From Candidatus Bathyarchaeota archaeon (GTDB taxonomy: Archaea; Thermoproteota; Bathyarchaeia; Bathyarchaeales; Bathycorpusculaceae): DNA of 64,000 nt. This document shows, one piece after another, positions 2,247 through 64,000 of the stretch (positions are counted from its first letter, which is position 1; the number at the start of each line of letters is the position of its first letter). Below the pieces are notes generated by a model, which was not told the DNA's origin, made no database searches, and saw only the letters and a program-made list of their open reading frames with translations. A program made the translations under genes and the position numbers. Location of the stretch: the NCBI GenBank assembly GCA_963828195.1, contig CAWHDT010000005.1, positions 288,001 to 352,000 on the forward strand, in the 5' to 3' direction.

Positions 2247-2349
2247 TTGCGCCTTCTTTGAAGGATGCCGCTCCGCTATTCACTTGTTAAGAATGAAGCA
2301 AATAGTAGGGGAGGCTGAGGGCTTTTCGCTTGTGCCAGGCACCTTTTTG

Positions 2350-2610
2350 CTGCTTGATTTTTGACACAATTTTCATTTTTTGATAGAACAACAACACCCG
2401 AAAAACAACTGTTGTTCTTCTATTGAATCCAGATTTAAGGCAGCCATCTAAAAAATAAAATTAAAAGAAGAAGCTGGTGAAAACAATTTTTCTTCTTCTT
2501 CTTTGGTCTGTTTCTTTTTGTAGCTGTTTTTTTGTGCAAATAGCAGGTAGGGCTATAGGTAGGCGGCGTCTAATTAGGGCTTGTTTTAAGGTGATTTTTT
2601 GGTTTAAGGC
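2350..2610 (+). repeat. Dispersed intergenic repeat, copy 1 (two fixed-spacer inverted repeats plus conserved tail)
   Basis: AGAACAACA-N16-TGTTGTTCT, AGAAGAAG-N18-CTTCTTCT, then GTGCAAATAGCAGGTAGGGCTATAGGTAG...AGGGCTTGTTT; homologous to 20648-20880 and 32408-32640. Confidence 0.9.
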
Positions 2611-2638
2611 TTAAAATAGTTTATTTGCCAAAATAGGT

Positions 2639-3460: not shown

Positions 3461-3562
3461 GAGGCTTGAAAAGCAAAGGCGTTGATATAGAGCTTTATTA
3501 CAAAATATATAGTGACCTAGGAGTGACCCAATAAACTATTTATAAAAAGTCAAGAGTTAAAA

Positions 3563-4189: not shown

Positions 4190-4213
4190 TATGTTTCTTT
4201 TTGCTTCTTAAGC

Positions 4214-5242: not shown

Positions 5243-5267
5243 ATGGTTTTCACCAAAAAAAATTTGG

Positions 5268-6071: not shown

Positions 6072-6163
6072 TTCGTGGAACCTTTTGTTTTAAGAATTAA
6101 ATAACCTTTCCTACCCTGCCAAGAAAAAACTTTGAATTTGAGATTTTTGGGTTTTCTATTTTC

Positions 6164-6868
6164 TTAAAGTTCTATAGTTTGGGCAGTGTAAGGCTTAGGT
6201 ATGATTACTTTTGTCTGCGGCATCTTGTCCTTTAATATGTTTTCGAATTCCATGTGCTGCCCTTTGGAGCCGTGTATGGCAACAACAACTTTTGGTTTTA
6301 GGTCCGCTGCCATTTTAGAGGCGTTTTCGGGGGAACACGTTGGAGACCAGCGTCCTGTAGGCAGAAAAGCCAGCTGCGACTCGTAATCTTTGAGGGGCAC
6401 GTATCCTGAGTCGCCCGCGTGAAACACGAGGAGGTTGCCCATTTTTATTTGGAAGAGCATTAAGGGACCACGGTGGATCCTTTGAACCGCCTTTACCGTA
6501 AGGTCTCCGTAAGCGTACGTTTGACCAGACACCGCACTTTTTAACTTCTCCTCGGGGATGCTTCCTTTCAATTTGTCGGCGACTTTTGCCTCAGCCAATA
6601 TGGCTGCTCCAGTTTTCTTGAACAGCTTCAACGTCTTTCCACCATTGAAATGATCCATATGGTTGTGCGTGAAGAGCAGGAGGTTGACTTCTTTGAGTGC
6701 CGCCGTCTCGTCATCTTTCAAAAAGCCAGCGGGGTCAATCAGAACGGCTTGTTTAGCTGTCCTTGCGAGGATTCCTGAACCCCCAAAATACATGAAGGCA
6801 ATCTGGTTCTCAGAGAGACCTGAAGCAAAAAAATCGCCAATTTCTTTAGCCTTACTTTGTCTAAACAT
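6164..6868 (-). CDS. MBL-fold metallo-hydrolase (UlaG-like)
   Basis: THNHMDH, FHAGDS, AIHG. Confidence 0.88.
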   Translation of the reverse strand: MFRQSKAKEIGDFFASGLSENQIAFMYFGGSGILARTAKQAVLIDPAGFLKDDETAALKEVNLLLFTHNHMDHFNGGKTLKLFKKTGAAILAEAKVADKLKGSIPEEKLKSAVSGQTYAYGDLTVKAVQRIHRGPLMLFQIKMGNLLVFHAGDSGYVPLKDYESQLAFLPTGRWSPTCSPENASKMAADLKPKVVVAIHGSKGQHMEFENILKDKMPQTKVIIPKPYTAQTIEL

Positions 6869-7032
6869 AAATGACCGCTATTCCTTTGTGTGGCGACCCA
6901 ATATAAAAAATCTTTTGCAGACTTTTTCAAGTTTCTCTTCAATCCAGAATCAATCGACATAAATATAAAATCTATCAAAAATAAGTTGTTCCATTTGAGT
7001 AACAACAAAGCTATTTTAATAAAAAATTACTC

Positions 7033-7374
7033 TTGGATCTTGTTGTTGTGGAGGTGAAATTTTTGATTAAAACGGACAGCGCCATGGATCCTATGAAGGT
7101 CGCCTCTAACGTTTACAAGTTTCTTGATGAAAACGATCGGGTTAGGGTTCTCGAAGTCATTTTTAAGCCTGGGGATTCTGCGAAAATGCATCATCATCCC
7201 GAACACGTAGTTTATGTGCTGAAGGGAGGTCTTCTAAAGCTTACTTCTGAAGGGAAAACTCAGGAATTAGACTTAAAGCAGGGATCAGTTATTTTCCTCA
7301 AGGAGCAAAACCACGAAGCAACTAACTCTGGCAAATCAGACATTGACCTTCTAGTCATGGAGCTGAAGAAGTAG
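7033..7374 (+). CDS. Cupin domain protein
   Basis: ENDRVRVLEV, MHHHPEH, NHEATN; real start probably 7072 or 7084. Confidence 0.85.
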   Translation: MDLVVVEVKFLIKTDSAMDPMKVASNVYKFLDENDRVRVLEVIFKPGDSAKMHHHPEHVVYVLKGGLLKLTSEGKTQELDLKQGSVIFLKEQNHEATNSGKSDIDLLVMELKK

Positions 7375-7439
7375 TTTGTAAATAAGAGGGCAATCTTTTT
7401 TTCCCAAGGGTGCTCGACATTTTCCTGAAGACTTTTCTT

Positions 7440-8090
7440 TTATGATCCGCTCAATATGCCCGCAAGTAAGCGGCGCTCTGCTTTTCTTCGGTGTTCTATC
7501 AAGGTGGAGCTGCGCAAATCGAGTTTTTCTGCAAGCTCTTTAGAATCGATTCTTCTTGGCATATCGTAGTACCCGTGCTCAAAAGCTGAAACCAAAACAG
7601 TCCGCTGCTTAGCCGTCAAATAATCCAGCGGGGAATGCGGTGAAAACTTTGCGTCCGTAAGCGAAACCACTTTAAAAAGAACTCCGAGTTTTTCAATAAA
7701 ATTAAGGAACGCTTTCAATTGCCTCGTTTCTCCGAGAACGCAGACCTTAACCTTTCCGTCTCTGATCTCGCATGGACCTGAAAGGTAGATTCCCATGCTC
7801 AAAAAATCTTGAGAACCAGAGGGTAATTTCTCTTTGGTAAAACAAATGTAGGTTCCTTTCTTTTCTTCTTCTAAGATAACTACTTTGAGCTTGTTGCCAA
7901 CGAACACGTCCTCTATCCGTGCGGATGGATTTGTTAATTCAATTCTGCATACGGCATCAAAATGCTCTAAGTCGAACCTGAGAACATGCAGTAGCTCGAA
8001 GAGTTTTATTTTTTCAATTGACATGTCTGCCGATTCGCCATCAATCTTGCTGAATTCCTCGATGGAACCTTCCAATATGAGTCTGCGCAT
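7440..8090 (-). CDS. HTH-10 (bacterio-opsin activator-like) transcriptional regulator
   Basis: C-terminal LTAKQ...GYYDMPRRIDSKELAEKL...STLIEHRRKAERRL. Confidence 0.9.
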   Translation of the reverse strand: MRRLILEGSIEEFSKIDGESADMSIEKIKLFELLHVLRFDLEHFDAVCRIELTNPSARIEDVFVGNKLKVVILEEEKKGTYICFTKEKLPSGSQDFLSMGIYLSGPCEIRDGKVKVCVLGETRQLKAFLNFIEKLGVLFKVVSLTDAKFSPHSPLDYLTAKQRTVLVSAFEHGYYDMPRRIDSKELAEKLDLRSSTLIEHRRKAERRLLAGILSGS

Positions 8091-8283
8091 TGAAGAGAAC
8101 GTGCCCGTTCGTCAATAATAACTTTGTCAAAAGAGCCTAGCTTAAGCGGTAGAACCCTAATCTGACACTGTATACAACATTTAATCAAATAATTCCTGGA
8201 GTCAAGAACATGAATCTTCTCTTATTTCAAACGAACAATTCTGTACGGTTAAACTCTTGCGTGGGGTGCGAAAGGCTTTTATA

Positions 8284-8316
8284 CAAAGTTAGGCTAACCT
8301 AATTAGGCTGACCTAA
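8284..8316. promoter_or_regulatory. Tandem DtxR/IdeR-like operator between TATA-like box and start codon
   Basis: TTAGGCTAACCTAA (8289-8302) followed directly by TTAGGCTGACCTAA (8303-8316); 8284-8302 matches TTAGGTTAGGCTAACCTAA at 16/19. Confidence 0.65.
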
Positions 8317-8317
8317 A

Positions 8318-9313
8318 ATGGAGTACATCATAACTGTAAAAGACCTCGTCGAAGTGTACGCCGACGGAACAAAGGCAGTCGACGGTATTTCTTTCAACGT
8401 CAAAGAAGGCGAGTTCTTCGGATTTCTAGGCCCCAACGGCGCAGGAAAGAGCACCACAATCAAAGTCCTCACCACGCTCCTCAGAAAGACTTCAGGATAC
8501 GTCCACGTGGCCGGCTATGATTTAGATAAATCGCCCAAGGAAATCCGAAAAGTCATAGGGGCGTTAAGCCAAGAAACAAGTCTGGATGTGGATCTCACGG
8601 GGAGGGAGAACCTGCATCTTCAGGGTCGTTTACAGCAGCTTCATGGCTCCGTTCTCGAAGATCAGGTGGATGAGCTGTTGAAGCTAATGCAGCTTGAGGA
8701 TGTGGCGAAGAAACCTGCCGGTCGCTACTCGGGCGGGATGCGGAAGAGGTTGGATTTGGCTTGTGCTCTCATTCATAAGCCGAAGTTGTTATTCTTAGAT
8801 GAACCGACCACTGGACTTGACGCCCAGTCCCGCGCGGCTATCTGGGATTATCTGGAGAAACTGAATAAAGAGGAGGGCATAACGATTTTCTTGACTACGC
8901 AGTATTTGGAGGAAGCTGACCGGCTCTGTTAACAGCTCTCCATAATAGATCACGGTAAGCTCATCGCGGGTGGTTCTCCCTCGGAGCTTAAAGCGGATTT
9001 GGGCGGCGATATGATAATGCTGACGCTTAAAGACGGAACGGATGCAGCTTTGAGATCAAAAACAAAGGAGATTCTCAAAACGATCCCAGAAGTTACCAAT
9101 GTCATGGATTCGGATGGGGGTGTTGTTGCCTACGCAAAGAACGCTGGTGAGATAATCGCTGACGTTGTGACATCGCTTGACCGAAATAACATCCGCCCGT
9201 CATTTCTCAGCATTTCCTCTCCGACATTAGACGATGTCTTTCTGCGTCAGACGGGCAGGAGAATTAGGTCAGAGGAGCTTGGCAGGAAGGAAACCGAGCC
9301 CTTCCTGATGTGA
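8318..9313 (+). pseudogene. DrrA-like ABC transporter ATP-binding protein interrupted by one in-frame TAA
   Basis: GPNGAGKST, YSGGM, LDEPT; reads DRLC*QLSIIDHGK in frame across TAA 8930-8932 into the C-terminal PTLDDVF domain. Confidence 0.85.
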
Positions 9314-9314
9314 G

Positions 9315-10088
9315 GTGATCGATGTGGCATTACTCTACGACGTTCAATCGCTTCTTGTGAGATATCTGACGAAGCTTGTTAGGAATCCTACCTTGCTAGC
9401 GACAAATATTGCAACGCCCTTGCTGATGCTCCTTCTCTTCTCGCAGTTGCTTACTAAGTTCAGCATCTTTCCGGGCGTCTCTGGGAACTACCTCGCCTAT
9501 CTGACGCCGGGGATCGTTATGTTAACTGCTATGATTAGTGCACCTCAGGGCGGGGTCTCGATTGCGAATGATTTGAATTCGGGGTTCCTCTCGAAGCTGA
9601 TGCTTACTCAGGTTAGTAGACCCGCAATTTTGCTGGGCAGATTATTAACGGATGCTTTTGTTGTTGTGGTTCAGTCATTAATTACAATTGTCGTTGCAAT
9701 TGCGTTGGGTGTGACTATCGTCACTGGGATTCCCGGAATTTTGCTTATCTTGGTAACCGCCGCATTCTTTGAGCTAGCCCTGTCAGGGATTTTCCTTGTG
9801 GTCGGGATGAAAAGTAGGAAAACCGAGACTATCTCCGCGATTTCGGGTGTGCTGTTCTTTCCTCTCATCTTTGTAAGCAGCGCCGTTTTTCCCACTTCCT
9901 TCTTCCCTGCCTGGGCGCAGACTGTCTCTAAGTATAACCCAGTGAGTTATGCTTCGGATGTGACGCGTGCGTTGGTTCAGGGCGGCTTAACTTGGAGCAC
10001 ATTATTGTCCGCATATGCAGCGATCGGGATAATCGCCCTTGTGACCTTCGCGGCGACATTATATCAGTTCAGAAAAGTCGTTAGCTGA
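9315..10088 (+). CDS. ABC-2 type transporter permease
   Basis: Six hydrophobic segments, YLTPG, NPVSYA; follows the ATPase. Confidence 0.9.
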   Translation: MIDVALLYDVQSLLVRYLTKLVRNPTLLATNIATPLLMLLLFSQLLTKFSIFPGVSGNYLAYLTPGIVMLTAMISAPQGGVSIANDLNSGFLSKLMLTQVSRPAILLGRLLTDAFVVVVQSLITIVVAIALGVTIVTGIPGILLILVTAAFFELALSGIFLVVGMKSRKTETISAISGVLFFPLIFVSSAVFPTSFFPAWAQTVSKYNPVSYASDVTRALVQGGLTWSTLLSAYAAIGIIALVTFAATLYQFRKVVS

Positions 10089-20558: not shown

Positions 20559-20647
20559 GCCATTTTGTGTTGGTTTTTTGACAAATACTGTGAAGGTCTA
20601 TGGGCAGCGGGTTTCTGAGCGGGCTTGCTTTGGGTTGGCTTTTTGCG

Positions 20648-20880
20648 GCTGAATTTTGCTGTAAATTTTAATTTTGAAAGAACAACAACACTTTGGAAAC
20701 AACTGTTGTTCTTCTGGGCAATATTTATTTTTAAAAGAAGAAGAAGCTGGTGAAAACAATTTTTCTTCTTCTTCTGCCTGGCATATTTGTGGCAGTTTTT
20801 GGCACAAATAGTAGGCAGGTCTATATGTAGACGCAGTTTGGGTCAGGGCTTGTTTCATGTCGGTTTTATGGTTTAGACCA
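20648..20880 (+). repeat. Dispersed intergenic repeat, copy 2
   Basis: Same two inverted repeats with 16- and 18-nt spacers; diverged tail CAAATAGTAGGCAGGTCTATATGTAG...CAGGGCTTGTTT. Confidence 0.9.
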
Positions 20881-23119: not shown

Positions 23120-23801
23120 TTTACTCACTTGTCTTTATTTTTGAAATAAGCGAATTTTTAATAATTGCTGGTTTTTTTAACATTTTTTGTTTGCTTTGAG
23201 GTTGCTTATTTATATAAGCACAAATGAACATACACGCTTATAAGTATATGTGTTTAAGTGTGTAAATGTGATGGACTATTGCACACTTTGGCTTGCGGTA
23301 AGTAAATGATTAGAAAAAAAGAAAGAGATGAAACTGCAAAAACGAAAAGACCATAGCCCGCATGTCACCACCAAACCCCGCTTCTGGAGGATAATTCTTA
23401 ACTTTGTTGTCGGTTGAGTTGCCCACTGCTTTTTAGCCCGGTTTCATTTGAGACCAGAAGCTATTCCTTTTTTAATTTGAAAAATTTTTAAATTAAAGGG
23501 TTCACGGATCTCCAGCCCCCATAAAGCCTTTGCTCTGAACAACGTTGCATTTTCAGTAATTATGTCGGGGAATAAAAGAGAGTGGCCAAGGAAACAAACG
23601 AAGACGTCTGGAAAGATTGCACTGGCTTTCTACCTGAGGCTTTGGAAAGTTGCCATCTTCTCTTCGCTCTGATTCCAGAGATGAGGTCAAACGGCTTTGC
23701 GATGGTTCCTAACTTGAAAGGCAGGTAATGACCCCGGGAGTTTTGCAAAGAGACAAATGAAGAGAAATAAATTGAAAATAAGAAAGAAAAATTGGGTTGG
23801 T

Positions 23802-32407: not shown

Positions 32408-32640
32408 TTTGATTTTTGTTATTAATTTTAAATTTTGAAAGAACAACAACACTTGGGGAACAACTGTTGTTCTTCTTGGCAATATTTATTTAAAAGAAGA
32501 AGCCTAGTGAAACCGTTTTTCTTCTTCTTTGGTCCTGTTTCTTTTTGAAGTTAAATTTTTGTGCAAATAGCAGGTAGGGCTATAGGTAGCGGCGTCTTAT
32601 CAGGGCTTGTTTTAAGCTGATTTTTTTGGTTAGGGTTTTT
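32408..32640 (+). repeat. Dispersed intergenic repeat, copy 3
   Basis: Same two inverted repeats (16- and 18-nt spacers); tail nearly identical to copy 1. Confidence 0.9.
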
Positions 32641-52883: not shown

Positions 52884-53936
52884 TTATTCCTTCATGTATT
52901 TTCTGTATTTCGCAATTACCTCTGACAGCTCAGGGGCACCAAACATTTTGCGGTTTGTCATCGCGTTTGCCGCCGCCATGTACATCTCGCTGATGATTGT
53001 TTTAAGCTCGGGGTCAAGTTTCGGCGGCTGCGACTTGCACAGCGCTTTCCAATATTGGATGCCTTTAGCTTCAGCCTCTTTTTTCGCCGCCTCCAGATCC
53101 GTGTACCAGCGGGTTTTCTTGTAGAATTGACGCGCCACCTCTTTGCTGACATGCACGCCGCCGTAGGTGAACCTGCATTCGTCAAGGGTTCCGACTACGT
53201 CAACTATCATGAGTTGTCTTTTCTCGTCGAAGGCTAACTCGATTTTTCCATCCTCATTCTTGAGCCCAGCTTTCGCAGCAACTTCAGTTATGGTTTCGTC
53301 GGCTTTAAGCAAAATGGCTTTGACATCGGCTAGTTCTTGGTCGGTTAAACCCGCGATTTTCTGCGCTTCAGCCCACGTCACGTAACGGTCAGTTTCTTCA
53401 AGCTTCGTACTCACGTCAAAGATTGGCTTCGCCAAGTTTTCTCCTGGCTTTGGATAGTGTTCTAAGCCGAGGTCTTTTAGCGTTATTTTTCCCTGTTCAA
53501 GCCGTTTGAAAACTGAGGAGCCTTCGGGCAAGCCGTTTCGATAGATTATTTCAAGCGGGATTAGGCAGTTCTTCAATTTGGATGTGTAGATGCTGTAGTC
53601 ATGCAGGATTTTGCCGTTAACTACGCTTGTTTTTGGCTTGTAAACGTTAACTAAACTGACTTCCATGATGCTTGAGGGCTGCTTTAACCCGCTAAACTTG
53701 ACCGCTTTGCCGTCCGAGTCCACTAAGCCTCTATAGTGAGTCCTTACTCCTTTGCGCTCCAATTGTTCAAAACAGTACGCGCCCATAAGGCACAGAGCAG
53801 CGCCTTTGCCGTCGATTAAATCGGGCATTTCTCCCCAGTCAAAAACGCTGTAGCGGTCTGAAAAATGGAATCTGCCGACGCCCATTTGAGTCTGGGTGGG
53901 TTTCTTTGTTACTTCAAGGTCTTTGACGCTGCCCAT
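52884..53936 (-). CDS. purC: SAICAR synthase
   Basis: MGSVKD, FSDRYSVFDWG, STKLE, DGKIE, GTLDECRF. Confidence 0.93.
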   Translation of the reverse strand: MGSVKDLEVTKKPTQTQMGVGRFHFSDRYSVFDWGEMPDLIDGKGAALCLMGAYCFEQLERKGVRTHYRGLVDSDGKAVKFSGLKQPSSIMEVSLVNVYKPKTSVVNGKILHDYSIYTSKLKNCLIPLEIIYRNGLPEGSSVFKRLEQGKITLKDLGLEHYPKPGENLAKPIFDVSTKLEETDRYVTWAEAQKIAGLTDQELADVKAILLKADETITEVAAKAGLKNEDGKIELAFDEKRQLMIVDVVGTLDECRFTYGGVHVSKEVARQFYKKTRWYTDLEAAKKEAEAKGIQYWKALCKSQPPKLDPELKTIISEMYMAAANAMTNRKMFGAPELSEVIAKYRKYMKE

Positions 53937-54228
53937 TCTGCAATCCCTATTTCGTCTCTTTTCTATCAGATTTACCTATTTTAGCTTATATCAATATCTA
54001 GAACCGCAATCACATTTTAAAGAATATAAGCAAATGCGCCCAAGCCATCAGACATAGAAGCATCAATGCAAGAAGGATAGTTATCTTCATTCTTCTTCGA
54101 ATTTGCCATTTTGTTGTTAAAGCGATAAAAAGTTTTTCATTAAGGTTTCTTGACTAAGATTGGTTAAAGTTTCCTTACTAAACCTTCACTTTTTTAAGCT
54201 CGAAATTTGGTTCTTAGGGATTTAATTC

Positions 54229-54940
54229 TTAATTTGGCTTATCTCTCTGCTTTTTTATTCTTAGTATGATTGCTATAGAGAGTATTGAAAAGACTAAAAG
54301 CAAAATTACTAGCAATTCCAATTCTGGAACTGTAAGAATGGGTGAAGGAGAAGCTTGGTTAACTAAAAGGTTACGATTGCCTTCTACATTAATATATATT
54401 GGTTGGTTATTGGAACTTTGATCCCAATTTGCATTTGTCGCAAACAGTTGACCACCTTCGGGGTCATTGTCAGTTACGTCATAGGAAAGAACCCCATTAA
54501 ATTCAAGTTTCAAATTAGCAACTTCAGGTTTAAAGCTCATAGAGAGTGTTCCACTGCTATTTTTGGGGTGTTAAGGTAATTTCATAGTTGACTAAATTTT
54601 GTATAACTGAATTAACCGCAGACTCATTAAGCAAAATCGGGTACTCCAAAATATTGAACACAATAGAAAAACCATCGCTATTATAATATTGATTCAGGTA
54701 AGTTATTGATATCAACCAATCAGCTGTGTAAGTATTATTCTGAATCCAAACACCATTAGGGTCCGTCTGAATCGTCGTAGTAACGTCAAATGTACAAATA
54801 ATATTACTACTATCTGCCTCATAGATGTTGGTTTTTCCAAAATCTTCAGTTAAAGTCTGGCCATGAGCGGTCATAGCAATCTCTGAAAAAAGTAACAAGC
54901 ACATGATTGATAGAACAATTATCAATTTTGAAGAGATCAT
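54229..54940 (-). pseudogene. Secreted protein with PEF-CTERM-like tail, frameshifted at a homopolymer
   Basis: Signal-peptide ORF 54557-54940 and ORF 54229-54540 (TVPEL, TM, basic tail) join as LTPQNSSGTLSMSF if one base is removed from T5 at 54560-54564. Confidence 0.7.
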
Positions 54941-55024
54941 GTTTATGCTATTTTATTCCAACTTGGATTTATTACTTTGTGATTTTTTTGTTTGCTTAAC
55001 GCTACAGACTTTGTTCTTAGCAGC

Positions 55025-55140
55025 TTACTTCTTTGTTCGGCTTATTCTCCGCTTTTTTAGTCTCAGTATAAATGCAATGGATAGCATTGAAAGGAACAGG
55101 GGTAAAATGGCTATCAATGGAAACTCTGGAAAAGGCAATA
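55025..55140 (-). pseudogene. Orphan PEF-CTERM tail
   Basis: FPEFPLIAILPLFLSMLSIAFILRLKKRRISRTKK*; no body upstream. Confidence 0.65.
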
Positions 55141-55972
55141 ATACCCTAAAAGCATGGGAAAGTGTGCAAAATAACTGTGCAATAAGCACGGTAAAGTGTG
55201 CAATAACCGATTAACTGCTATTTCATGATAATATTCAGCATGGACTTATGGTAATATTTGCACACTTGTAATATTACCATGAAAAAAACGAGTTAATAGT
55301 GATTTTTAGTGCTTTTCAGGTTTAAGGTTGTTAAATCACTGTATACAATGTATGCAGGGTTTTTTGGGGTTGTTTTAGTTAATTTTTGGGCTTTTTCTCC
55401 ATTGAAAAAGACGGTTAAAAGGCGGTGAATTAAAGGTGTAATTTTAAAACTCGGTGTGAATTATAAACTTGGTTTACAAACTAAAATTACTTAAGCGTAA
55501 CCTTTGGTAACTAGTTAATGGGAAAACATGCCCGTTTTTAACTAAAATTCACCGTTTTGTCTTTTATCGGTGAAAACATTATCTATTATCAATAGTTTGG
55601 TAATTATCGCATATTTTTATAGGGAAACTTGTAATTTTTACAAATAACCTTCTCTCCCAGAGAAAAAAGCCCGCGAGCGAACCCAAAAAAGAAATCACAA
55701 AAATCACACCTTGCTCTGCCTTCTAAAGTGGCTATAGCGCTTTGAGTTTTGAAACAATTACCGCTAGCCGTTTCTTAATGTTTTCAATGTAGGTGTTTAA
55801 GTGTAGAACAATATAGGTGGTTAGGTGTAAGAGTAGAAAGGCTTAAAAGCAGATAACAACAATATAGCACTCGTATTTGAGGATAGGGTTCCCGTCTACC
55901 ACTCAAGGCGGGAGGCATTGGAAGAGAGAGGTTCCTTCTATGCCTTTATCGTAACAAAGGAAGTCGGTCAAT

Positions 55973-56116
55973 GTGGGAAAAATCAACCTTGTAGTTTCTG
56001 ACGAATTAGAAAAACAATTCCGAGAAGCAGTTTTTAAAAAATATGGAATGAAACGCGGCAACATAACGAAAGCCACTGACGAAGCTCTGCAAGATTGGAT
56101 AAAAAAGACCGCTTGA
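55973..56116 (+). CDS. 47-aa ribbon-helix-helix protein (not in ORF track)
   Basis: MGKINLVVSDELEKQFREAVFKKYGMKRGNITKATDEALQDWIKKTA; paralog of 22976-23119. Confidence 0.8.
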   Translation: MGKINLVVSDELEKQFREAVFKKYGMKRGNITKATDEALQDWIKKTA

Positions 56117-56214
56117 TTTTTCCCTACTTTTCCCCTTATTTTTGTGTGGAAAACATATTTAAGCAGTAACTTTAGCGTTTGCCGTAACTCTGACTCCTAA
56201 AAGGAGAAAACAAA

Positions 56215-56343
56215 ATGCCTATATTTAGTTTTGTTTTTGAGCGCTCGGGGAACTTGCACGGCAAGAATGAACCTGAAACGGTTCGACCCCGACAACCCAT
56301 TAAACCAAAAACAGTACAGCCCAGAAAAGATAGCACAGCTTAA
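56215..56343 (+). CDS. Small hypothetical protein (42 aa)
   Basis: AAGGAG SD-like sequence before the ATG; overlaps the alternative ORF 56231-56434. Confidence 0.35.
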   Translation: MPIFSFVFERSGNLHGKNEPETVRPRQPIKPKTVQPRKDSTA

Positions 56344-56455
56344 GCGGATGAAGGAAAAACAGGAAGGCGGTCAAAGATGGAAAAACCGACCGTGCTATGA
56401 GCATTGGTCTATCGACCATCGCCAAACCGATTAGCCAAAAGATTGTTTTGTGCGC

Positions 56456-57226
56456 TCACACAATACTTTTTCGCCTTTTTCCCAAAACATCCTCAGATTC
56501 TTCTTTGGTTAACAGTTGAAAGTTGCTTTTGCCTTCTTTCAAAACTTTATTGAATACATTTTCGAGCTGTTGAATTTTGTCTTTCCCGAATGCTTTCTCA
56601 AGTGATTTTTTCATGTCAGTTAGAGCGGGTTCCGCTGTTTTGTCTTTGGCTAACGATTTAGAGGGATTTTGATATTCAAAGAGGACTTTAAAGTATTCGT
56701 CATCGCTGAGCGTTCTTGTTTTCGTCATTTCACTAATTATGCTGTGTGCGATTGGTCGTCTTACGAATGCTTGAGCGCCTCCTTGCTGTGTGACGTAAAA
56801 CGCGGGGATCTCCATAAGAGCGTTATGTCCGTCTTTTGCCGCGATAAATGCAGAGTACAAGGAGAGAGCACCTAACCATAGGCTAAGTTCCTTGAAAAGC
56901 TCTTCTTTTGGTCGTTCGCTTCCAAATTTTGTTAGGTTCTCATTGATAAGATTAAGCAGTTCAAGCTTGAGAATTGTTTCTTCCCACATCTCTTTAGGCA
57001 TGTTTTTTGGATTAAGACGATACCGTAAGTCTTTGTAGGCTTTTCTATCCGTCTCTAAGATTCCGTCTTTAGTCATTTTCTTAAGCAAACGAAAAATTGT
57101 CGATTCTGATATGCCTTCTTTTTTTGCTTTTTTTAGTACTTCCGATGCTTTGAGCCATTGCTGAGAAATAAAAATCGCGATGAGCTTTTTCTCTTTTTCT
57201 TTCGCCGAAGAATCAACGCGAGACGT
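56456..57226 (-). CDS. Winged-HTH repressor-like protein (probable ACG start)
   Basis: HTH KASEVLKKAKKEGISESTIFRLLKKMTKDGIL lies mostly upstream of the ORF-track start; AAGGAGG 7 nt before in-frame ACG at 57226. Confidence 0.78.
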   Translation of the reverse strand, partial: TSRVDSSAKEKEKKLIAIFISQQWLKASEVLKKAKKEGISESTIFRLLKKMTKDGILETDRKAYKDLRYRLNPKNMPKEMWEETILKLELLNLINENLTKFGSERPKEELFKELSLWLGALSLYSAFIAAKDGHNALMEIPAFYVTQQGGAQAFVRRPIAHSIISEMTKTRTLSDDEYFKVLFEYQNPSKSLAKDKTAEPALTDMKKSLEKAFGKDKIQQLENVFNKVLKEGKSNFQLLTKEESEDVLGKRRKSIV

Positions 57227-57337
57227 CCTATTTCCTCCTTATTTGATAGCAATACTTGACAGAAATCGTTTATAAGCTTTACTGCTTATTGGTGTAATAA
57301 TTACTATCAGTTAGGAGTAATTCCGAGAAAGGTAGTA

Positions 57338-57544
57338 TTGGAGAGAGAAAAGAAAATGGACAAAAAACCGAGTTTCCAAATGGATGCACCAACCCTAAAA
57401 CTTGTTGATGAAACAGCCGAGAAAATAGGCATCTCCCGTTCTGACTTTTTCAGAATGGCAGTCAAAGAAAAACTCTTTCGTCTTGGCGTTCTTCAACAAG
57501 AACAAAGCCTAAGCGTCAATAGCCACATGAGCGGAGGTGCTTAA
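57338..57544 (+). CDS. CopG/RHH family DNA-binding protein
   Basis: SFQMDAPTLKLVDETAEKIGISRSDFFRMAVKEKL. Confidence 0.85.
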   Translation: MEREKKMDKKPSFQMDAPTLKLVDETAEKIGISRSDFFRMAVKEKLFRLGVLQQEQSLSVNSHMSGGA

Positions 57545-57919
57545 ATGTCGCAGAAAGAAACAAAAAAAACTGAGCCGCTATCAATCCAACTCCAAGCCAT
57601 AAATATTATGATAAAAGCCTCTGAACATAACGGCATCTTTGATTCAGGTTTTAGTCTCCCTGACTTAGCTCAAAACGCAGAATACCGAGGCATGAAAGGA
57701 GAACAACTTTGGACAGCAGAAATGCTTGAAAAAGTAATAACCCGATTCCGACAACACATCGCCACACATCAGACCGAACCAAAAGACATAGACGCGCTCC
57801 TGACATTGCTATCCACAAAAATTAACGTCAACATCGACCGTATCCGCAGATGCTTTTACGGAATCCCAGAGCCAGCTTCCGAAACTGTCAACCTCTTTCC
57901 AACAGAAGAAACCGAATAA
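57545..57919 (+). CDS. Hypothetical protein
   Basis: GGAGGT SD-like sequence; abuts the RHH gene. Confidence 0.75.
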   Translation: MSQKETKKTEPLSIQLQAINIMIKASEHNGIFDSGFSLPDLAQNAEYRGMKGEQLWTAEMLEKVITRFRQHIATHQTEPKDIDALLTLLSTKINVNIDRIRRCFYGIPEPASETVNLFPTEETE

Positions 57920-57945
57920 ACCAATTCTAAGGAGAAAAAGCCAAA

Positions 57946-58020
57946 ATGTCCGAAAAAACACAAAAAATCTTAGAAATCGCCGCTTTTCTCATAGTGGCGG
58001 TTTTAAGCCTAATCCTATAG
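57946..58020 (+). CDS. 24-aa hydrophobic peptide (not in ORF track)
   Basis: AAGGAG SD-like sequence; MSEKTQKILEIAAFLIVAVLSLIL. Confidence 0.5.
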   Translation: MSEKTQKILEIAAFLIVAVLSLIL

Positions 58021-58034
58021 AAAAAATCAACGCT

Positions 58035-58265
58035 GTGAATATGATGTCTATAACCTCGCCGTCAAAACTAAGTAAATCTGTTACTGACAACGTTCTAAAG
58101 CAGATGGAAGAAAAAGCAATAGCTTACATCGGAGCTAATAAAAAGGTCGTAATCATCGCGGTCGCTGTAATCTTAGCCTTAATCGTTCTCTATCTGTTGA
58201 CACGTCAACCAAAGCCTAACGCTGAATTTTTATCTTCATTGGGGAAAATAAACGAGCATTCTTAG
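58035..58265 (+). CDS. Small single-TM protein
   Basis: KKVVIIAVAVILALIVLYLLTR. Confidence 0.7.
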   Translation: MNMMSITSPSKLSKSVTDNVLKQMEEKAIAYIGANKKVVIIAVAVILALIVLYLLTRQPKPNAEFLSSLGKINEHS

Positions 58266-58269
58266 GAAG

Positions 58270-59820
58270 GTGTCATTTACGAGTAACCGTCAACTTGCAA
58301 GCCCAAAGACAAGGCATGGCGAAATAAAAACACCTGAAAAAGTTAGCGCTTTATTTAGCCGCTTGAAAAAAGACAAGCCAGAGCCAGCCAACCCCGAAAC
58401 AAACCCGTGGAAGCTGAAACCCTTTAAAGGCATAATTCGCGGGGAATTTCACCAGAGCAGTTTACAACACGACCAAGAAGTAGAAATCCGTAACGGTATG
58501 CAGTACGCGGACTACCTGAACATATCAAAAAGGCAATTCCTCTATTTGATTTACGCCGATTTTCCCAATGGTGCGCCAACAAGCTCACGAACTCTTGCCG
58601 ATGCAAAAGTTGCTGAATACAACAAAACGCTATGCCATCAATATCTCGCTAAGCACTATCAGAACCCCGTAACAGGTGAATGGACAGACGCGGGTAAGAT
58701 GGTTGATGCAAGAGGTCGATACTTATACATGAAATTTGGACAACGTGACCCCGCACTTTTCAGCTTGGAAGATTTTCAAGAAGCAAAGAAAGACGCATCC
58801 TTTTATGACGAGCAAGGGAAACTTAAGTTTTCGCCGCTGTCTCAGCTTCGATGCATTATGCAGTTTACGGCTTTACAGGTTGAGGACTCACCACTATCTC
58901 GAAGGCGTTTTCAATTCGTGGAAGGCGACGAGTGGGATACAACAGGAAAAAAGAAAATAGGCGGTAAAAAAGACGACTATCTCCAAGAGCAAGAGCTAAA
59001 AATTTACGTGGAAAACATCAATGAACCCGACACGCTCGTTCTGCACCGATTAGGCTTAGAAGGCGGGGGGAGAATAAGCAGTGAATTACTTATGGGGCAA
59101 AAACTACTAAATGGCTATCTTTGTCAGGCTTTTTGGGATTTGAATTGCTTAAGCATGTTCGAGCCAAAAGTTGAAGGCAGTAAGACGGGCGGGAAAGTAA
59201 AGAGGTACTTTGCACCTGAAACGATGGCATTTTTCCAGCGGTACGTTACTGACTTCAATATAAAAGGTGCATGGTTTACGCGCTACCCATCAGAGGAACA
59301 CAACTATACAAGCTATGAGAGCAGTCTAAAATCGGCGGGTTATCGAGCAGGGCTTTGGCGTTTTAAGAAGGCTCAGAAGGGGCAAGAACTCGCAGACGGG
59401 GAAAAATTAGCCGCTAATGGACAAGTCTATAGATTAAAAGCAGTTAACAACAACCAAAAAGGCACACAGGACTTTGAAAAACAATGGTTAACCGAGGGCA
59501 AAATGACAACAAGCCACACGGTAATGAAACATACATTCGTGAGTCTCGCAGGACTTCATGGCTTGAGCTTAGACGATTGCGCAGAACAATGCGGAACAGA
59601 CCCAACAACCATACGAGACTTCTATCATGGCACCTTAGGCGACAAACTCCGCTCAGTAATCTTAGGCGAAAAAACATATGAACCGTGGAAAGATTGGATA
59701 ACCCGCTTTGTTGAACCATTATACACCAAGCGCTATAGCGAACTGATAAGCCAAAGTAAGATTGTTGTTGACTTAAAAGCAATCGCCCAAGAAGAGGCAG
59801 AAATGGCAGAGGTTGCGTAA
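58270..59820 (+). CDS. Divergent tyrosine recombinase/integrase-like protein
   Basis: DYLQEQEL, GLEGGGRISS (box I Arg), PKV (Lys), TSHTVMKHTFVS (box II variant), QCGTDPTTIRDFY (terminal Tyr). Confidence 0.72.
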   Translation: MSFTSNRQLASPKTRHGEIKTPEKVSALFSRLKKDKPEPANPETNPWKLKPFKGIIRGEFHQSSLQHDQEVEIRNGMQYADYLNISKRQFLYLIYADFPNGAPTSSRTLADAKVAEYNKTLCHQYLAKHYQNPVTGEWTDAGKMVDARGRYLYMKFGQRDPALFSLEDFQEAKKDASFYDEQGKLKFSPLSQLRCIMQFTALQVEDSPLSRRRFQFVEGDEWDTTGKKKIGGKKDDYLQEQELKIYVENINEPDTLVLHRLGLEGGGRISSELLMGQKLLNGYLCQAFWDLNCLSMFEPKVEGSKTGGKVKRYFAPETMAFFQRYVTDFNIKGAWFTRYPSEEHNYTSYESSLKSAGYRAGLWRFKKAQKGQELADGEKLAANGQVYRLKAVNNNQKGTQDFEKQWLTEGKMTTSHTVMKHTFVSLAGLHGLSLDDCAEQCGTDPTTIRDFYHGTLGDKLRSVILGEKTYEPWKDWITRFVEPLYTKRYSELISQSKIVVDLKAIAQEEAEMAEVA

Positions 59821-59823
59821 AAA

Positions 59824-60471
59824 TTGACGGCAAGAAGCATCAGATTAAGCGCTGACGAAGAGACTAAAGAGAGCGAAATCTTCGCCTTTTATGGTGTACA
59901 AGGCGAAACCTACAGCGAGCAATACCGCGATTTCATAGTAAAGATCCATAAAGCAATGCGCTTAGACGTAGTGATAGAAACACCCGATAATCCCGCTGTA
60001 CATCCCGCGCCAAACATTACCGTTATGCGCTGTCCATTACGCAAAACTCTTACAGTCGCACACAAAGACAAGAAAACTGGCGCTATCCTTTGGAGCGAGA
60101 AAAAACTCATATGCGTAAACAACCCACCACAAAAGACCTTTCTTGATGGCTCAGAAATATGCGAAGTATGCTTAGCGAAATTTTACGGTTTAGCAAAGAA
60201 ACTACGCGCCGCTAATCCTGACAGTTTGTCAGCACCGAAACAGAAGTCACAGCAAGAAGAAACGCCGATAACACAGCCAATAGACATCCCAGCCGCCACA
60301 CGTCAGCTTTTCTTAGCTCATTATGACGGTAAGAAACATTGCCCTTTCAGTGGTGACCGCATTTTAAGCCAAACTTGCTATGTATGCAGTACGCAAAACT
60401 CTAAACGCTGGAATGAATGCCGAGTGCTTGTCATGTCGATTATAACACCGCAAAAGGCAACAGCAAACTAA
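59824..60471 (+). CDS. Cys-rich hypothetical protein
   Basis: CP...C...CEVC and CPF...CYVC...C clusters. Confidence 0.75.
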   Translation: MTARSIRLSADEETKESEIFAFYGVQGETYSEQYRDFIVKIHKAMRLDVVIETPDNPAVHPAPNITVMRCPLRKTLTVAHKDKKTGAILWSEKKLICVNNPPQKTFLDGSEICEVCLAKFYGLAKKLRAANPDSLSAPKQKSQQEETPITQPIDIPAATRQLFLAHYDGKKHCPFSGDRILSQTCYVCSTQNSKRWNECRVLVMSIITPQKATAN

Positions 60472-60495
60472 GCCTTCCTTTTTTTAAACCAATAG

Positions 60496-61125
60496 GTGAG
60501 ACGAATGGTAACTACCAAAAAATCTGATAAAAAAGCTAAATTGCTCAATGCAGACCTTGACCTTGAATATTTTGAAATATTGGAAAGGGTTATTGCAGAC
60601 CAAAATCTTAACGGTAGACGAGAAGGTTTAGCCGTTATTTTTAAAGGCTATCTGAAGTCATGTAATCCCTCTGCCGCTGAACATGAACCTACTATTTGCG
60701 AGTTCCTTTCCGACGATAAAACTCTTTGTTGCAAAAATAAGGATAAAATCAAAAAAACAACGATTAAAGAATGCAAAGGCTGTCAGAAAACGCAAGAAGT
60801 CGTCGCAAGAAACCAACGTATGGAAGAGCTAAGATTTCATGGAGAACTTTTAAGACATGATTTGACTGAGCAAATGTGGATTTTTGAACTTGGCATTCCC
60901 TTTGAAAAAACAGGGTATGACACTTTTAACCGTTTGCTTTTCCTCAAAGAAAAACTCGACCAAAAAGAAAGGGAAATTGCAAAGCTTTTGCCGCTCGAAA
61001 TCGAAAACGCTTCCCTAAAACAACAACTAAGCGAAAAAGCAATGGAAATACAGACTTTGAAAGCTGAAAACGCTAAGCAAGAAACCACAATCAATGACTA
61101 TATGTTTCAGAGGAAACCCCAATGA
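60496..61125 (+). CDS. Hypothetical protein with Cys cluster and C-terminal coiled coil
   Basis: CEFL...CC...CKGC followed by heptad repeats. Confidence 0.75.
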   Translation: MRRMVTTKKSDKKAKLLNADLDLEYFEILERVIADQNLNGRREGLAVIFKGYLKSCNPSAAEHEPTICEFLSDDKTLCCKNKDKIKKTTIKECKGCQKTQEVVARNQRMEELRFHGELLRHDLTEQMWIFELGIPFEKTGYDTFNRLLFLKEKLDQKEREIAKLLPLEIENASLKQQLSEKAMEIQTLKAENAKQETTINDYMFQRKPQ

Positions 61126-62012
61126 AATATCTGCTTTTGGTTCCCATCCGTAACAGTGCTCACCTTCTACCGTTCTTTTTCCAATCGCTTAGAAGCATGA
61201 ACCCAAAACCTGACTATATCGTTTGGTGCACCAATAACAACACCGATAAGACTGTTCAAAAACTGAAAGCTTTCCGCGATATTCCCTCAGAAATCATTGA
61301 ATTGCCCGACTTTCCGAAAGACTTCATCAAGCAGAAAGGAGTTTTTGAGGCGATAAGCATCGTTCGTCAGCGCCTTTGGGAGCGTGCGCGAGAACTTAAT
61401 AGCGAATGGACTTTTATGTGTGACTCAGACCATTTTGTTGTTTCATCTGACATCTTGGAAATACTGAGCACTTGGAACGTGGATTTTGTTGTAACGCCTC
61501 AAATGCGCTTTGTAGAAAATGCACAGAAAAAGGGAGAGTACGCAATAATTTTAACTGCATGGCTGCTTGAAAATGGCAATTGGTGCCGTGTTTTTTCAGA
61601 CTTTTATACTCACGCATTAATTCCCCATCAGCTATTTGTTTGCCGCTCCACTCTAACGCCGCAAAGACCACTCCTTGTTCCTAACATGGCTGTGGCTTAC
61701 GGATTTTATTGCTTTAGCCGTCGCCTTGTTCAAGATTGCCGTTTAAATTGGCATCCGCTCTCAGATTCCACAGCAACTAAAGACCTTCCAATCGGTGAAT
61801 TCCTCGTACTTGCCAGAAACGGGTTAGTCGGCAAAAATGGCATGATTGGTGAGGATATGCAATTTGCTCTGAGTGCGCGAAGGCTTGGTTACATAATACA
61901 TATGGATGGAATAGCCGTTATCGACCATGTGTGCTATGACGAAAAAATTAGCGGAATTAAGGCGTGGGATTTCAACATGAATGCTTTTGTGCCTTCTCAA
62001 AGTATGCGGTAA
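61122..62012 (+). CDS. Glycosyltransferase, GT-A fold (family 2-like)
   Basis: LVPIRN, NNNTDKT, CDSD (DxD), IGED, DH. Confidence 0.8.
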   Translation: MKYLLLVPIRNSAHLLPFFFQSLRSMNPKPDYIVWCTNNNTDKTVQKLKAFRDIPSEIIELPDFPKDFIKQKGVFEAISIVRQRLWERARELNSEWTFMCDSDHFVVSSDILEILSTWNVDFVVTPQMRFVENAQKKGEYAIILTAWLLENGNWCRVFSDFYTHALIPHQLFVCRSTLTPQRPLLVPNMAVAYGFYCFSRRLVQDCRLNWHPLSDSTATKDLPIGEFLVLARNGLVGKNGMIGEDMQFALSARRLGYIIHMDGIAVIDHVCYDEKISGIKAWDFNMNAFVPSQSMR

Positions 62013-62104
62013 GAGCTATTATGACATTTCAACTACAAGAAACGCCTTTTTGGGGTCAATTTACGGCTAAAGTTTTTTAAACCAATCAACCCCTATTTTA
62101 TGTT

Positions 62105-62413
62105 ATGAGTGCTGACGAAAAAGACATTGTTTTTATGGTTAGCTCTGCGTGTAGTGGTTGCGGCTCTTACCTTAGAGCGTACAGTAAAGATTCGCGACTA
62201 ACTCGCTGTTTTGATTGCGGAGCAAGAAAGCCTCATCCAAATATTTTATCCGTTTTCCAATACGAGGAAGAAATGGTCGGCGAGTCAAAAGAACACGGAA
62301 CAATTTTTCAAAATCGTAGACGATGCAAGGAATGTGGTTCTAATAAGTATTTTTACATCATGGAGAACGGTGTTGAAAAACAACGGTGTGATGAATGTGA
62401 GGATTTATTTTAA
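62105..62413 (+). CDS. Double zinc-ribbon protein
   Basis: CSGC, CFDC, CKEC, CDEC. Confidence 0.75.
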   Translation: MSADEKDIVFMVSSACSGCGSYLRAYSKDSRLTRCFDCGARKPHPNILSVFQYEEEMVGESKEHGTIFQNRRRCKECGSNKYFYIMENGVEKQRCDECEDLF

Positions 62414-63934
62414 AAAATGAGGGGATACCCTTTAAGCCCTGCGGGGCACTTCATTAGAGTGCTTTTGGTTTAGAAAGTGTTCACCCCGACGCAAAAGAAC
62501 GGTTGTAATTGTCACAATCGCAAAGATGCTTAGAATTGCAAGTGTGCAATTAGGCACTTCTGGATTCTCCAAATCTTTCTCGATGCATTTATCCAAGCAC
62601 TTCACCCAACATCATTTGGCGAGTTGCGTTCCTTCTAAATAAACAGGGTATAGCTCTACGCCTTGAGGTGTGGAGGAATCATCAATTAAATGTGCAGTTC
62701 CATCCGGGCAATAGACTTTGTCACCCTTGGAGGCTTTTTTGTAACGCTTGGCACACTCTCTTAATTGAGGGCATCCGTCGCAATCTCGTGATAGTATTTT
62801 TCATTATCGCCTCTTTTCTATTTTATGAACCCCATGATGTACCTTTTTGTTGAATAAATCATAAGGCTTGGATTCCTTGAAGCTTGATCTTTTATGAACT
62901 TTCGATATTTTATCGCATAATATGCAAATATTGTTATAGATGAACTTGCGCATAATGCGACCAAGGGTATACCGGTTTCTTCCATCATTTTCCACCTAAA
63001 CATCGGTCTATTTCATTATTTCTTTTTTTAGTGAACACCTTTTTTGAGTAATATTTTTTATCAGTTTTACTTCGGAAAGAAAATAGTGGCGTTACGATAA
63101 AAGCCTGATTGAGATATATTCATAAAGATTATGAAAAGTTAAGGTAAAATTATTATTGTGAGGCCGATGCACCCATGCTTAAAAAGCGTAGATACAACAA
63201 ACAACCTGAAACCGAAAAAATAGCGGGTGTAACTTCCAACAGCTTCATTAATTGAAATAGTAACTCTCCGGATATTCGTTTATAAAATTTTTAGTTCCAC
63301 GTGTAAAATATTTCCTTTCCTTGAAGATATTGCACTCACAAAAAGCAAATACAACTTTCCCCACCATGTTTCTCTACCGTGTTTGCGGAAAAACTCACAT
63401 CGCCCTCTCTTTATTTCCTTTCAAACTGTTATCTTTTGGTTGATGACTTTTATTTTACTGAATTTCGTTTCGTATCGTTCTTCGCAGTTCGCTTTTAGTT
63501 CTAGATTCACAAACGTAAACTGTAAAGCAAAATTTGCTTTTTACCATACAACTGTCAAACATATTACAAATATTGTGAGAGTATTTTTGATAATTAAGAA
63601 AAATTCTGAACAAATCATAACCAGATTTAAATAAGATGTGAACCGCGTTAACATATCGGAAATCGAAAGAGTGAAACCACAACGATGTTTGACCTCATGA
63701 ATCCTTTGGGGACTAGCACGGCTTCTTTGAAATCGGTTTTTGCGTATAACATGCTGTGGTTTAAGAAGAGTCCCAATGCAGAGACTGATCCAAGCGAAAG
63801 ACACTTGAGAATTGATGATAAAACCAGTTTGGAGAAGCCGAAAAAAATCAGAGCTATTCTAGAAAGTGCTTCTAACGGCATAATATCGAGGCGTACACGA
63901 GGTGGTTGCGCTGAAAAACAATGTTGCTGATAAT

Positions 63935-64000
63935 TTGGATAACATAGATATTAAAATTCTCAATTTGCTTCAGGAAGATAGCCGATCAAGTTTTCACGAG
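63935..64000 (+). CDS. Lrp/AsnC family regulator (5' end only)
   Basis: LDNIDIKILNLLQEDSRSSFHE; the start may be slightly upstream. Confidence 0.8.
   Translation, partial: MDNIDIKILNLLQEDSRSSFHE

Follow-up and report, generated by a model that had tools for sequence, protein, structure and literature searches.

Does a gene for a tyrosine-recombinase-like protein with altered catalytic motifs specify a working integrase, and does it mark a mobile element? The question is raised by an open reading frame (ORF) of 516 amino acids (aa) at 58270-59820 of a 64,000-nucleotide stretch, here called the window, from a Candidatus Bathyarchaeota archaeon (contig CAWHDT010000005.1, positions 288,001 to 352,000). 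A preliminary description of this DNA had proposed either a new recombinase subfamily or a recombinase repurposed for another role, lying in an undescribed element. Our analysis indicates that the ORF is probably a catalytically competent tyrosine recombinase, acting as the integrase of a small (~10-12 kb) integrated element that is patchily distributed in Bathyarchaeia.

Taken as a single sequence, the ORF has no match in Pfam, PHROGs or NCBIfam, and phmmer against the PDB sequences gave a best expectation value (E) of just 0.43. A word-indexed search recovered 47 relatives at E ≤ 0.01 with 29-80% identity, some of them on contigs of 0.5-1.7 Mb; the two that are named are both entered as "hypothetical protein" of Bathyarchaeia or Bathyarchaeota. 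An exhaustive HMMER search of cluster representatives returned 84 relatives at E ≤ 0.001. PF00589 is matched at E ≤ 0.01 by 26 of 37 distant relatives (mostly 400-500 aa), 13 of which reach the gathering score, and many of the 37 bear an N-terminal helix-turn-helix. The family profile matches XerA (5hxy) at E 7e-12 and five more recombinases at E < 1e-3, namely a staphylococcal integrase, P. abyssi XerA, HP1 Int, XerD and IntI4.

Structure prediction agrees with these profile matches. An AlphaFold2 model, built from an alignment of 94 sequences with identity to the query down to ~21%, has a mean predicted local distance difference test score of 90.8 and a predicted template modelling score of 0.76. 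The top Foldseek matches in the PDB are all tyrosine recombinases (XerA, IntI4, Tn1549 Int, HP1 Int, XerH, Cre and lambda Int), with the recombinase-fold repressors MrpR, YopR and SroF ranking lower. VIA-align gave Z scores of 16.4 and 16.2 for two XerA structures, 16.0 for IntI4, 15.0 for XerH and 13-14 for Tn1549 Int, lambda Int and Cre; its matches cover residues ~111-469, and IntI4 superposes with a root-mean-square deviation of 4.2 over 271 residues. No type IB topoisomerase or protelomerase is among the Foldseek or VIA-align matches listed, VIA-align merely re-scoring the Foldseek list. The core of those enzymes is R-K-R-H-Y, with N-terminal or clamp domains of their own; the second Arg of that set is Lys in the ORF. 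In BFVD the named matches are integrases or tyrosine-recombinase-domain proteins, several other rows being nameless, and the nearest ESM Atlas cluster is "tyrosine-type recombinase/integrase" (score 0.97). The recombinase fold is thus recovered by Foldseek, VIA-align and BFVD alike. We conclude that the ORF is, on profile homology and predicted fold, a true but highly divergent tyrosine recombinase.

The long N-terminus, previously described as unrecognised, can be read in part. For residues ~111-230 the aligned counterparts are the core-binding domains of XerA, IntI, Cre and lambda Int; the two model helices at residues ~76-97 align with a helix-turn-helix identified by Pfam in shorter relatives. 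The N-terminus therefore consists of an extra helix-turn-helix-containing domain plus an ordinary core-binding domain. The insertion of ~50 aa reported ahead of box II is real; it spans residues ~360-410, is beta-rich in the model, and is confined to a subfamily of 470-540 aa, being missing from shorter relatives. Further helices, at residues 473-513, follow the catalytic Tyr.

The active site retains four of its residues and replaces three. Profile alignment pairs GgRisS with XerA GVRVGE, placing Arg I at R268, and pairs EpKv (EPK, 298-300) with the segment of the beta-hairpin Lys, which is K300. The segment tHilKHTF is paired with XerA PHVLRHTF, so that His II is H416 and K420 stands opposite Arg II; qtgTd is paired with LLGHS, which puts T443 at the His/Trp III position, and FY with IY, which makes Y452 the catalytic Tyr. 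The Glu/Asp I position, three residues beyond Arg I, is S271. All four motifs of the preliminary description lie where it placed them (GGGRISS at 265-271, HTVMKH at 416-421, CGT at 441-443 and the terminal Tyr in FYHG at 451-454). Its two deviating positions, Arg II and His/Trp III, stand as claimed, but the count has to be raised, since S271 makes three of seven. Box II hence keeps the His of the canonical HxxR and has Lys for its Arg, the acidic residue of Glu/Asp I is replaced by Ser, and neither His nor Trp is found at the third position.

These replacements are general in the family. Among the 94 aligned sequences R268, K300 and Y452 are invariant (94/94 each), and His is found at position 416 in 91, Lys at 420 in 91 and Thr at 443 in 92. 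Position 271 is Ser in 69 sequences, Ala in 17 and Gly in 8. The full signature R-[S/A/G]-K-H-K-T-Y is present in 91/94, and the three exceptions carry Tyr and Arg at His II and Arg II, the pattern of pNOB8-type integrases. As the exceptions swap both residues, His II and Arg II change together. Box II is spaced HxxxK in 55 sequences, the query included, and HxxK in 39. Between the window gene and a second copy in the same genome, the number of synonymous substitutions per synonymous site (dS) is 1.77, near saturation, the nonsynonymous value (dN) is 0.14 and dN/dS is 0.08. Homologues share the Lys and the Thr rather than carrying HxxR and LGH, and the alteration of three of seven active-site positions in the same way across the clade bears out the proposal of a new recombinase subfamily. 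Because of the 91/94 conservation and the dN/dS of 0.08, the sequences identify K420, T443 and S271 as a conserved, selected variant and not as decay.

Published enzymes suggest how such a site could work. In natural sequences Arg II is reported to be Arg in 99.1% and Lys in 0.5%, and to be conserved as strongly as the catalytic tyrosine (PMC2943603). Cre R292K, with the same substitution at this position, is nevertheless described as active in vivo and in vitro, with a build-up of covalent intermediate that reflects a ligation defect, and vaccinia type IB topoisomerase (TopIB) R223K as keeping ~10% of its activity (PMC2943603). The SNJ2-type integrases of haloarchaeal pleolipoviruses are listed as having Gly/Ala for Glu/Asp I and Ala/Val for His/Trp III, and are reported to be necessary for recombination (PMC5861418). 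Each single deviation thus has, in Cre R292K, TopIB R223K or the SNJ2-type integrases, a function-retaining precedent. Full-text literature searches found no description of an Arg II-to-Lys change as a clade-wide state combined with other changes.

The genomic setting is clearest around the second copy, which is 80% identical and lies on another contig of the genome, C7. There, homology of relatives to the left flank ends at 136877 and homology to the right flank begins at 148531, the two flanks overlapping by 22 bp in the relatives. An 11-bp direct repeat, AAATCTTTAAC, is found at 136867-136877 and 148540-148550. The insertion measures 11,673 bp and is located between the genes for form III RuBisCO and adenosine monophosphate phosphorylase. 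An uninterrupted, single-copy target (...TTTTTCCTTAAAATCTTTAACTATT...) is present in five of five relatives examined. With direct repeats at its ends and an empty target in relatives, the C7 copy has the hallmarks of a site-specifically integrated element. For thaumarchaeal elements, attachment (att) cores as short as 8 bp, with a median of 17 bp, are reported (PMC6563490). The C7 recombinase gene (142630-144183) is in mid-insertion, with ~5.7 kb of the element to its left and ~4.4 kb to its right, which agrees with the earlier remark that the gene lies inside the element and not at its edge. The last gene of the element encodes a 455-aa surface protein that has no Pfam match itself, while relatives in its cluster match Beta_helix/NosD. 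No further integrase gene was seen among the ORFs of the C7 element. Logan contigs from four DNA runs, short (mostly <750 bases in the rows listed) and of low depth, were uninformative on the C7 element, with no cross-element joint or circular junction. At its left end the element carries a gene for an inorganic pyrophosphatase (G000:C7 136971-137549; L067 2971-3549; PF00719, E 7e-49).

The gene is accessory. A match at E ≤ 1e-10 occurs in 11 of the 61 genomes of the genus, this genome included, and in nine of them it extends over most of the protein length; among genomes at least 90% complete the figure is 5/38. In a sample of 301 genomes of the phylum, strong matches (E ~1e-165) were limited to two genomes, this one and another from the same family. 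The remaining 27 matches in that sample (E 1e-16 to 1e-24, one per genome, in ORFs of 272-383 aa) are, we infer, ordinary Xer-type recombinases. Fourteen loci come from species-representative genomes, all titled Candidatus Bathyarchaeota or Bathyarchaeia, and the host genes that flank the element in the window are common to none of the 13 other full-length loci. A pattern scan of IMG/VR gave 22 pattern matches with no relative among them, and tblastn against phage and plasmid collections matched nothing. Together with the patchy distribution and the repeat-flanked C7 insertion with its empty sites, these results support the earlier suggestion that the gene marks an undescribed Bathyarchaeia mobile element. 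Integration targeted to tRNA genes, considered as a further possibility, is unsupported because no tRNA gene is at or near the element: the window has just tRNA-Pro at 21231 and tRNA-Met at 43550, and loci L015, L016 and L018 have none.

Comparison with characterized systems places the protein close to several of them and inside none. XerA (5hxy, 4a8e) is both the best profile match and the best structural match; the two proteins have the core-binding plus catalytic two-domain fold in common, and Arg I, the beta-hairpin Lys, His II and Tyr all align. XerA differs in being ~270-320 aa long with canonical HxLRH and LGH, whereas the Bathyarchaeia protein has 516 aa and S/K/T, and XerA lacks the N-terminal helix-turn-helix domain, the ~50-aa insertion and the C-terminal helices. 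XerA is described as a single-copy chromosome-dimer resolvase that acts at dif (PMC2958812). A conserved, usually single-copy core gene with a canonical site is not what is seen here, given the 11/61 genomes and the two copies in this one. As the genome has five further PF00589-type ORFs, the recombinase need not be the chromosome's Xer.

Among archaeal integrases the published residue patterns allow a finer comparison. At Glu/Asp I and His/Trp III, the two positions altered in SNJ2-type enzymes, the Bathyarchaeia clade has Ser/Ala/Gly and Thr, in resemblance to them. SNJ2-type enzymes retain the pentad R..K..HxxR..Y and so differ in keeping Arg II (R298), as do all the archaeal integrases tabulated with them, namely phiCh1, SSV1, pNOB8 and pTN3 (PMC5861418); the Bathyarchaeia clade has Lys. 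The phage collection, in which the presence of SNJ2 was not checked, yielded no sequence match at E ≤ 1e-3. Integrases of the pNOB8 type are described as R...YxxR...Y, with an int gene that stays intact after integration and an att site outside it (PMC8371274, PMC5861418). The Bathyarchaeia gene resembles them in remaining intact on integration, and 3/94 relatives show Y..R; it differs in that 91/94, including the protein itself, have H..K, and in having Thr at His/Trp III where pNOB8 has Arg, so that the pNOB8 tetrad is not formed. SSV1-type "suicidal" integrases are described as R...KxxR...Y, and their int gene contains the att site and is split by integration (PMC8371274, PMC5861418). They too are integrases of small archaeal viruses and plasmids with a non-canonical box II, but their Lys takes the place of His II, with Arg II retained, whereas the Bathyarchaeia protein has Lys at Arg II. 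Its gene is intact in both integrated copies, with the C7 att cores kilobases away on either side. Cre R292K and vaccinia TopIB R223K carry the identical substitution at the same catalytic position, where Lys is reported to support cleavage and recombination. Both are laboratory-made single mutants, less active and defective in ligation (PMC2943603), unlike the natural and conserved Lys of the Bathyarchaeia clade, which adds two altered positions and, in this subfamily, an extra residue between His II and Lys.

In the window, the recombinase gene sits within a run of co-directional genes from 57338 through 62413 (Table 1). The conserved module around it is formed by clusters c1, c2 and c3, the remaining genes being variable. 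The c1 protein belongs to no known family in Pfam or NCBIfam, with merely sub-threshold ribbon-helix-helix leads in the ESM Atlas and weak RHH_3 matches in Pfam. The three Cys-rich proteins and the glycosyltransferase reported downstream are in place (215, 209 and 102 aa), the glycosyltransferase on a weak match. Upstream, the 47-aa ORF resembles, by eye, a ribbon-helix-helix protein. The 57-aa remnant represents a beta-helix surface protein whose full-length form (455 aa) is encoded at the right end of the C7 copy.

Table 1. Features of the recombinase-bearing element in the window (+, forward strand; -, reverse strand; loci, number of the 15 loci with homologues).
Feature	Coordinates	Strand	Characteristics	Loci
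Recombinase-bearing element (approximate)	54002..63590		left junction ~53992-54001; low G+C (guanine plus cytosine) at both edges	
Conserved non-coding block	55118..55660		86% mean column identity among three elements	
47-aa ORF	55973..56116	+	below the 50-aa ORF listing limit; surrounding DNA 84-89% identical to other elements; no Pfam match	
67-aa ORF	56231..56434	+	86% identical to an ORF at the equivalent position in locus L008	
210-aa ORF	56456..57088	-	no known family; divergent to the recombinase operon; unrelated ORFs of similar size occupy the same position in other loci	
CopG-type ribbon-helix-helix regulator	57338..57544	+	68 aa; PF01402 E 5.5e-5, 23.4 bits, passing the 20.5-bit cut-off	4/15
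Cluster c1 protein	57545..57919	+	124 aa (124-277 aa in other loci); directly 5' of the recombinase	13/15
76-aa protein	58035..58265	+	one hydrophobic helix; immediately 5' of the recombinase	3/15
Divergent tyrosine recombinase	58270..59820	+	GTG start, 516 aa; N-terminal helix-turn-helix-containing domain ~1-110, core-binding ~111-230, catalytic ~231-470, then C-terminal helices	
Cys-rich protein	59824..60471	+	215 aa, 8 Cys	single homologue, in L012
Cluster c2 protein	60496..61125	+	209 aa, 6 Cys, coiled-coil-like; 3' of the recombinase; weak coiled-coil matches only in Pfam	13/15
Probable family-2 glycosyltransferase	61122..62012	+	296 aa; PF13704 E 2.8e-5 (25 bits, cut-off 27.5) and PF00535 E 3.3e-4, both below cut-off	3/15
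Zinc-ribbon protein, cluster c3	62105..62413	+	102 aa, 8 Cys; PF12760 E 2e-4, below cut-off	10/15
57-aa remnant, cluster c4	62432..62605	-	resembles C-terminal membrane anchor of beta-helix surface protein; DNA match to C7 147002-147159	

The extent of the window copy is less sharply drawn than that of its sister. On the left, homology to four relatives stops at 53992-54001, ~60 bp upstream of purC. In three of three relatives examined, purE follows purC within 76-329 bp; here the two are parted by ~25.7 kb, from 54002 to ~79670-79780, past the end of the window. The core common to the window and C7 elements covers 55112-62564. To the right of it come the 57-aa remnant, ~1 kb of AT-rich DNA and then, from 63590, lrp, a P-type ATPase gene, glnA and two asparagine synthase genes. 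This block is syntenic (77-86% identity) with one beside a related element on contig C6 of genome G016, which lies within a variable region of ~45 kb without clean flanks, and in other congeners the P-type ATPase gene and glnA occupy ordinary chromosomal loci. The 25.7 kb may be one composite island, or the element plus translocated host DNA. The same 25.7 kb also carry a gene for a CobQ-like amidotransferase; the P-type ATPase gene is the genome's only copy and glnA is a second copy. Searches for k-mers that could serve as att sites of the window copy gave only 9-11-mers, a length expected by chance, and the C7 core AAATCTTTAAC is not enriched in L015, with 17 matches at ≤2 mismatches against 16.7 expected. 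Rfam returned one chance-level match only on 53000-64000 and the right flank. The window copy may be immobilised, with its recombinase gene intact.

Several repeats and fragments were seen in the same region. At both edges of the element there are fragments of surface or secreted proteins, which have basic tails and hydrophobic C-terminal anchors (54229-54940, 55025-55189 and 62432-62605, all on the reverse strand). Matches to 54042-54183 are numerous across congeneric genomes, and a similar stretch (...TTTCTTGACT...TTGG...) is found upstream of the C7 beta-helix protein gene. A dispersed repeat of ~150-190 bases is present in more than 70 copies in the genome at 74-97% identity, for example at G000:C5 367359-367552 (window coordinate 79359-79552). 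Copies inside the window are at ~2356-2544, 20638-20811 and 32411-32571; the repeat looks like a miniature transposable element or a family of intergenic repeats.

The non-coding block at the left of the element is more conserved than the DNA of the recombinase gene (70-77%). It contains three direct AAAGTGTGCAA repeats, at 55160, 55173 and 55194, plus one in inverted orientation within the loop of a palindrome at ~55249-55281, whose arms vary between elements yet remain complementary. A further AAAGTGTGCAA copy lies at 62540, inside AATTGCAAGTGTGCAATT, close to where the shared core ends on the right. With one mismatch allowed, the AAGTGTGCAA motif is not enriched (8 against 7.5 expected); of its five exact copies, four are in the element. 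From this arrangement the block could be a candidate origin, operator or recombinase-binding region. Remote from the element, at 23256-23288, there is an inverted pair of this same motif, AAGTGTG(C/T)AA, 13 bases apart.

A metagenome scan added 19 loci and a link to viruses. One of them, L055 (13,235 bases), has a terminal overlap of 123 bases, which indicates a circular molecule of ~13.1 kb. Its genes include one for a clade member of 410 aa, which has THLLKH, GT and Y and matches phrog_1 "integrase" at E 1.1e-8, and others for a small packaging ATPase (phrog_2666, E 4.9e-18), a protein of the fusellovirus VP2 family (PF25632, E 1.7e-10, above cut-off) and a beta-helix tail-spike-like protein. 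By its gene content, L055 looks like an undescribed small archaeal virus. BLASTP showed no similarity between the Cys-rich protein 3' of the L055 recombinase and the window's two Cys-rich proteins. Loci L010 and L013 are chromosomal and encode more distant family members (48% and 37% identity). They have eight conserved upstream genes in common (~800-9700 of each), one of which encodes a product of 308 and 291 aa that matches P2_N, a PM2-type coat protein domain, below threshold; these loci may represent a different type of provirus with an integrase from the same clade. The window element has no recognisable capsid, ATPase or replication gene in Pfam, PHROGs or NCBIfam, and may be a provirus, a plasmid or a satellite.

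A number of observations weigh against an active integrase. Three of seven conserved active-site positions are non-canonical, and Cre R292K is reported to be only moderately active and ligation-defective (PMC2943603). The HxxxK spacing is one residue longer than HxxR, and so His II may be displaced. A clean att site and empty target were obtained for one element, C7, only; L009 yielded a left boundary alone (~8045-8145). The right end of the window copy is blurred, with a truncated surface-protein gene followed by ~16 kb of chromosome-like genes, and a repeat search over 53800-64000 found no convincing terminal or att repeats. The sole candidates are AGCTTATATC, a 10-mer at 53983 and 79557, and CTATTTTAG, a 9-mer at 53976 and 79781, repeats of a length for which the chance expectation is ~1. 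Finally, the recombinase gene is not adjacent to an element end, unlike the genes of many integrases.

The last of these points bears on the alternatives. The main job of the protein could be multimer resolution, or replication nicking or initiation, on an episome, perhaps at the repeat-and-palindrome block, with Lys favouring long-lived covalent intermediates. The internal position of the gene, far from the att ends, would suit such a job. So would the lack of a recognisable replication protein in the element, the high conservation of the block with its AAGTGTGCAA motifs and co-varying palindrome, and the covalent intermediate that Cre R292K is reported to accumulate (PMC2943603). All of this is indirect, however, and nothing ties the protein to the repeat block. 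The integrated, repeat-flanked state requires an integrase, for which this protein is the only candidate seen, and resolvase and integrase roles are compatible rather than exclusive. We consider this reading unlikely; the resolvase, topoisomerase-like and replication-protein alternatives of the preliminary description gained no positive support. Quite unlikely, too, is a natural "R292K-like" recombinase tuned to long-lived covalent intermediates, which would combine the work of an integrase with that of a replication initiator or resolvase at 55150-55280 and would serve small archaeal viruses and elements that lack a recognisable replication protein. Such combined use, if true, would be undescribed for archaeal recombinases.

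A regulator would also fit the position of the gene, in mid-operon between regulators and small Zn-binding proteins. The protein would then be a DNA-binding regulator of the element that has the tyrosine recombinase fold and has ceased to recombine, like the SPbeta-type master repressors MrpR and YopR. Structural matches to these two and to SroF have Z 9.3-11.5, below the Z 13-16 of true recombinases. All 94 sequences keep the Tyr nucleophile, Arg I and the beta-hairpin Lys, and Arg II is replaced by the sole conservative residue known to keep activity. The sister element moreover has a direct-repeat junction of the recombinase type and no other integrase gene seen among its ORFs, which makes a pure regulator very unlikely. 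It is hardly credible that the element is dead and that the unusual residues mark an ordinary integrase in simple decay. The window copy does look immobilised, with no clear attR and a truncated surface-protein gene alongside, but the ORF is intact, the same residues recur in 91/94 relatives down to ~21% identity and in the relative on the circular contig, and the two copies of the gene in this genome have remained under purifying selection.

We thus favour an active integrase, for which a mechanism can be proposed from the chemistry of the family. Y452 would attack the scissile phosphate to form a 3'-phosphotyrosyl intermediate, with R268 and K300 in their usual roles in transition-state stabilisation and as general acid. 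K420 would stand in for Arg II as the second cationic phosphate ligand, and S271 and T443 for the structural Glu/Asp I and His/Trp III. The DNA would be held by the N-terminal helix-turn-helix domain together with the core-binding domain. The element and an intergenic host site would share a short AT-rich core, at which recombination between the two would leave short direct repeats, and the junctions of the C7 copy are presumably the work of this enzyme.

A clade that has kept Lys, Ser and Thr under purifying selection constitutes a natural experiment on how much of the tyrosine recombinase active site is dispensable, and may be a source of enzymes with a different balance of cleavage and ligation. 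Full-text literature searches found no description of this recombinase clade, and for elements of Bathyarchaeia they found only viruses identified through capsid genes or clustered regularly interspaced short palindromic repeat (CRISPR) spacers; the mobilome of the group is barely described. Standard domain models do not detect the protein, and mobile-element surveys that look for integrases would therefore pass over this family of Bathyarchaeia elements. The recombinase most likely marks an undescribed family of Bathyarchaeia mobile elements, and the family profile, together with the link to a circular virus-like contig, provides a handle on such elements.

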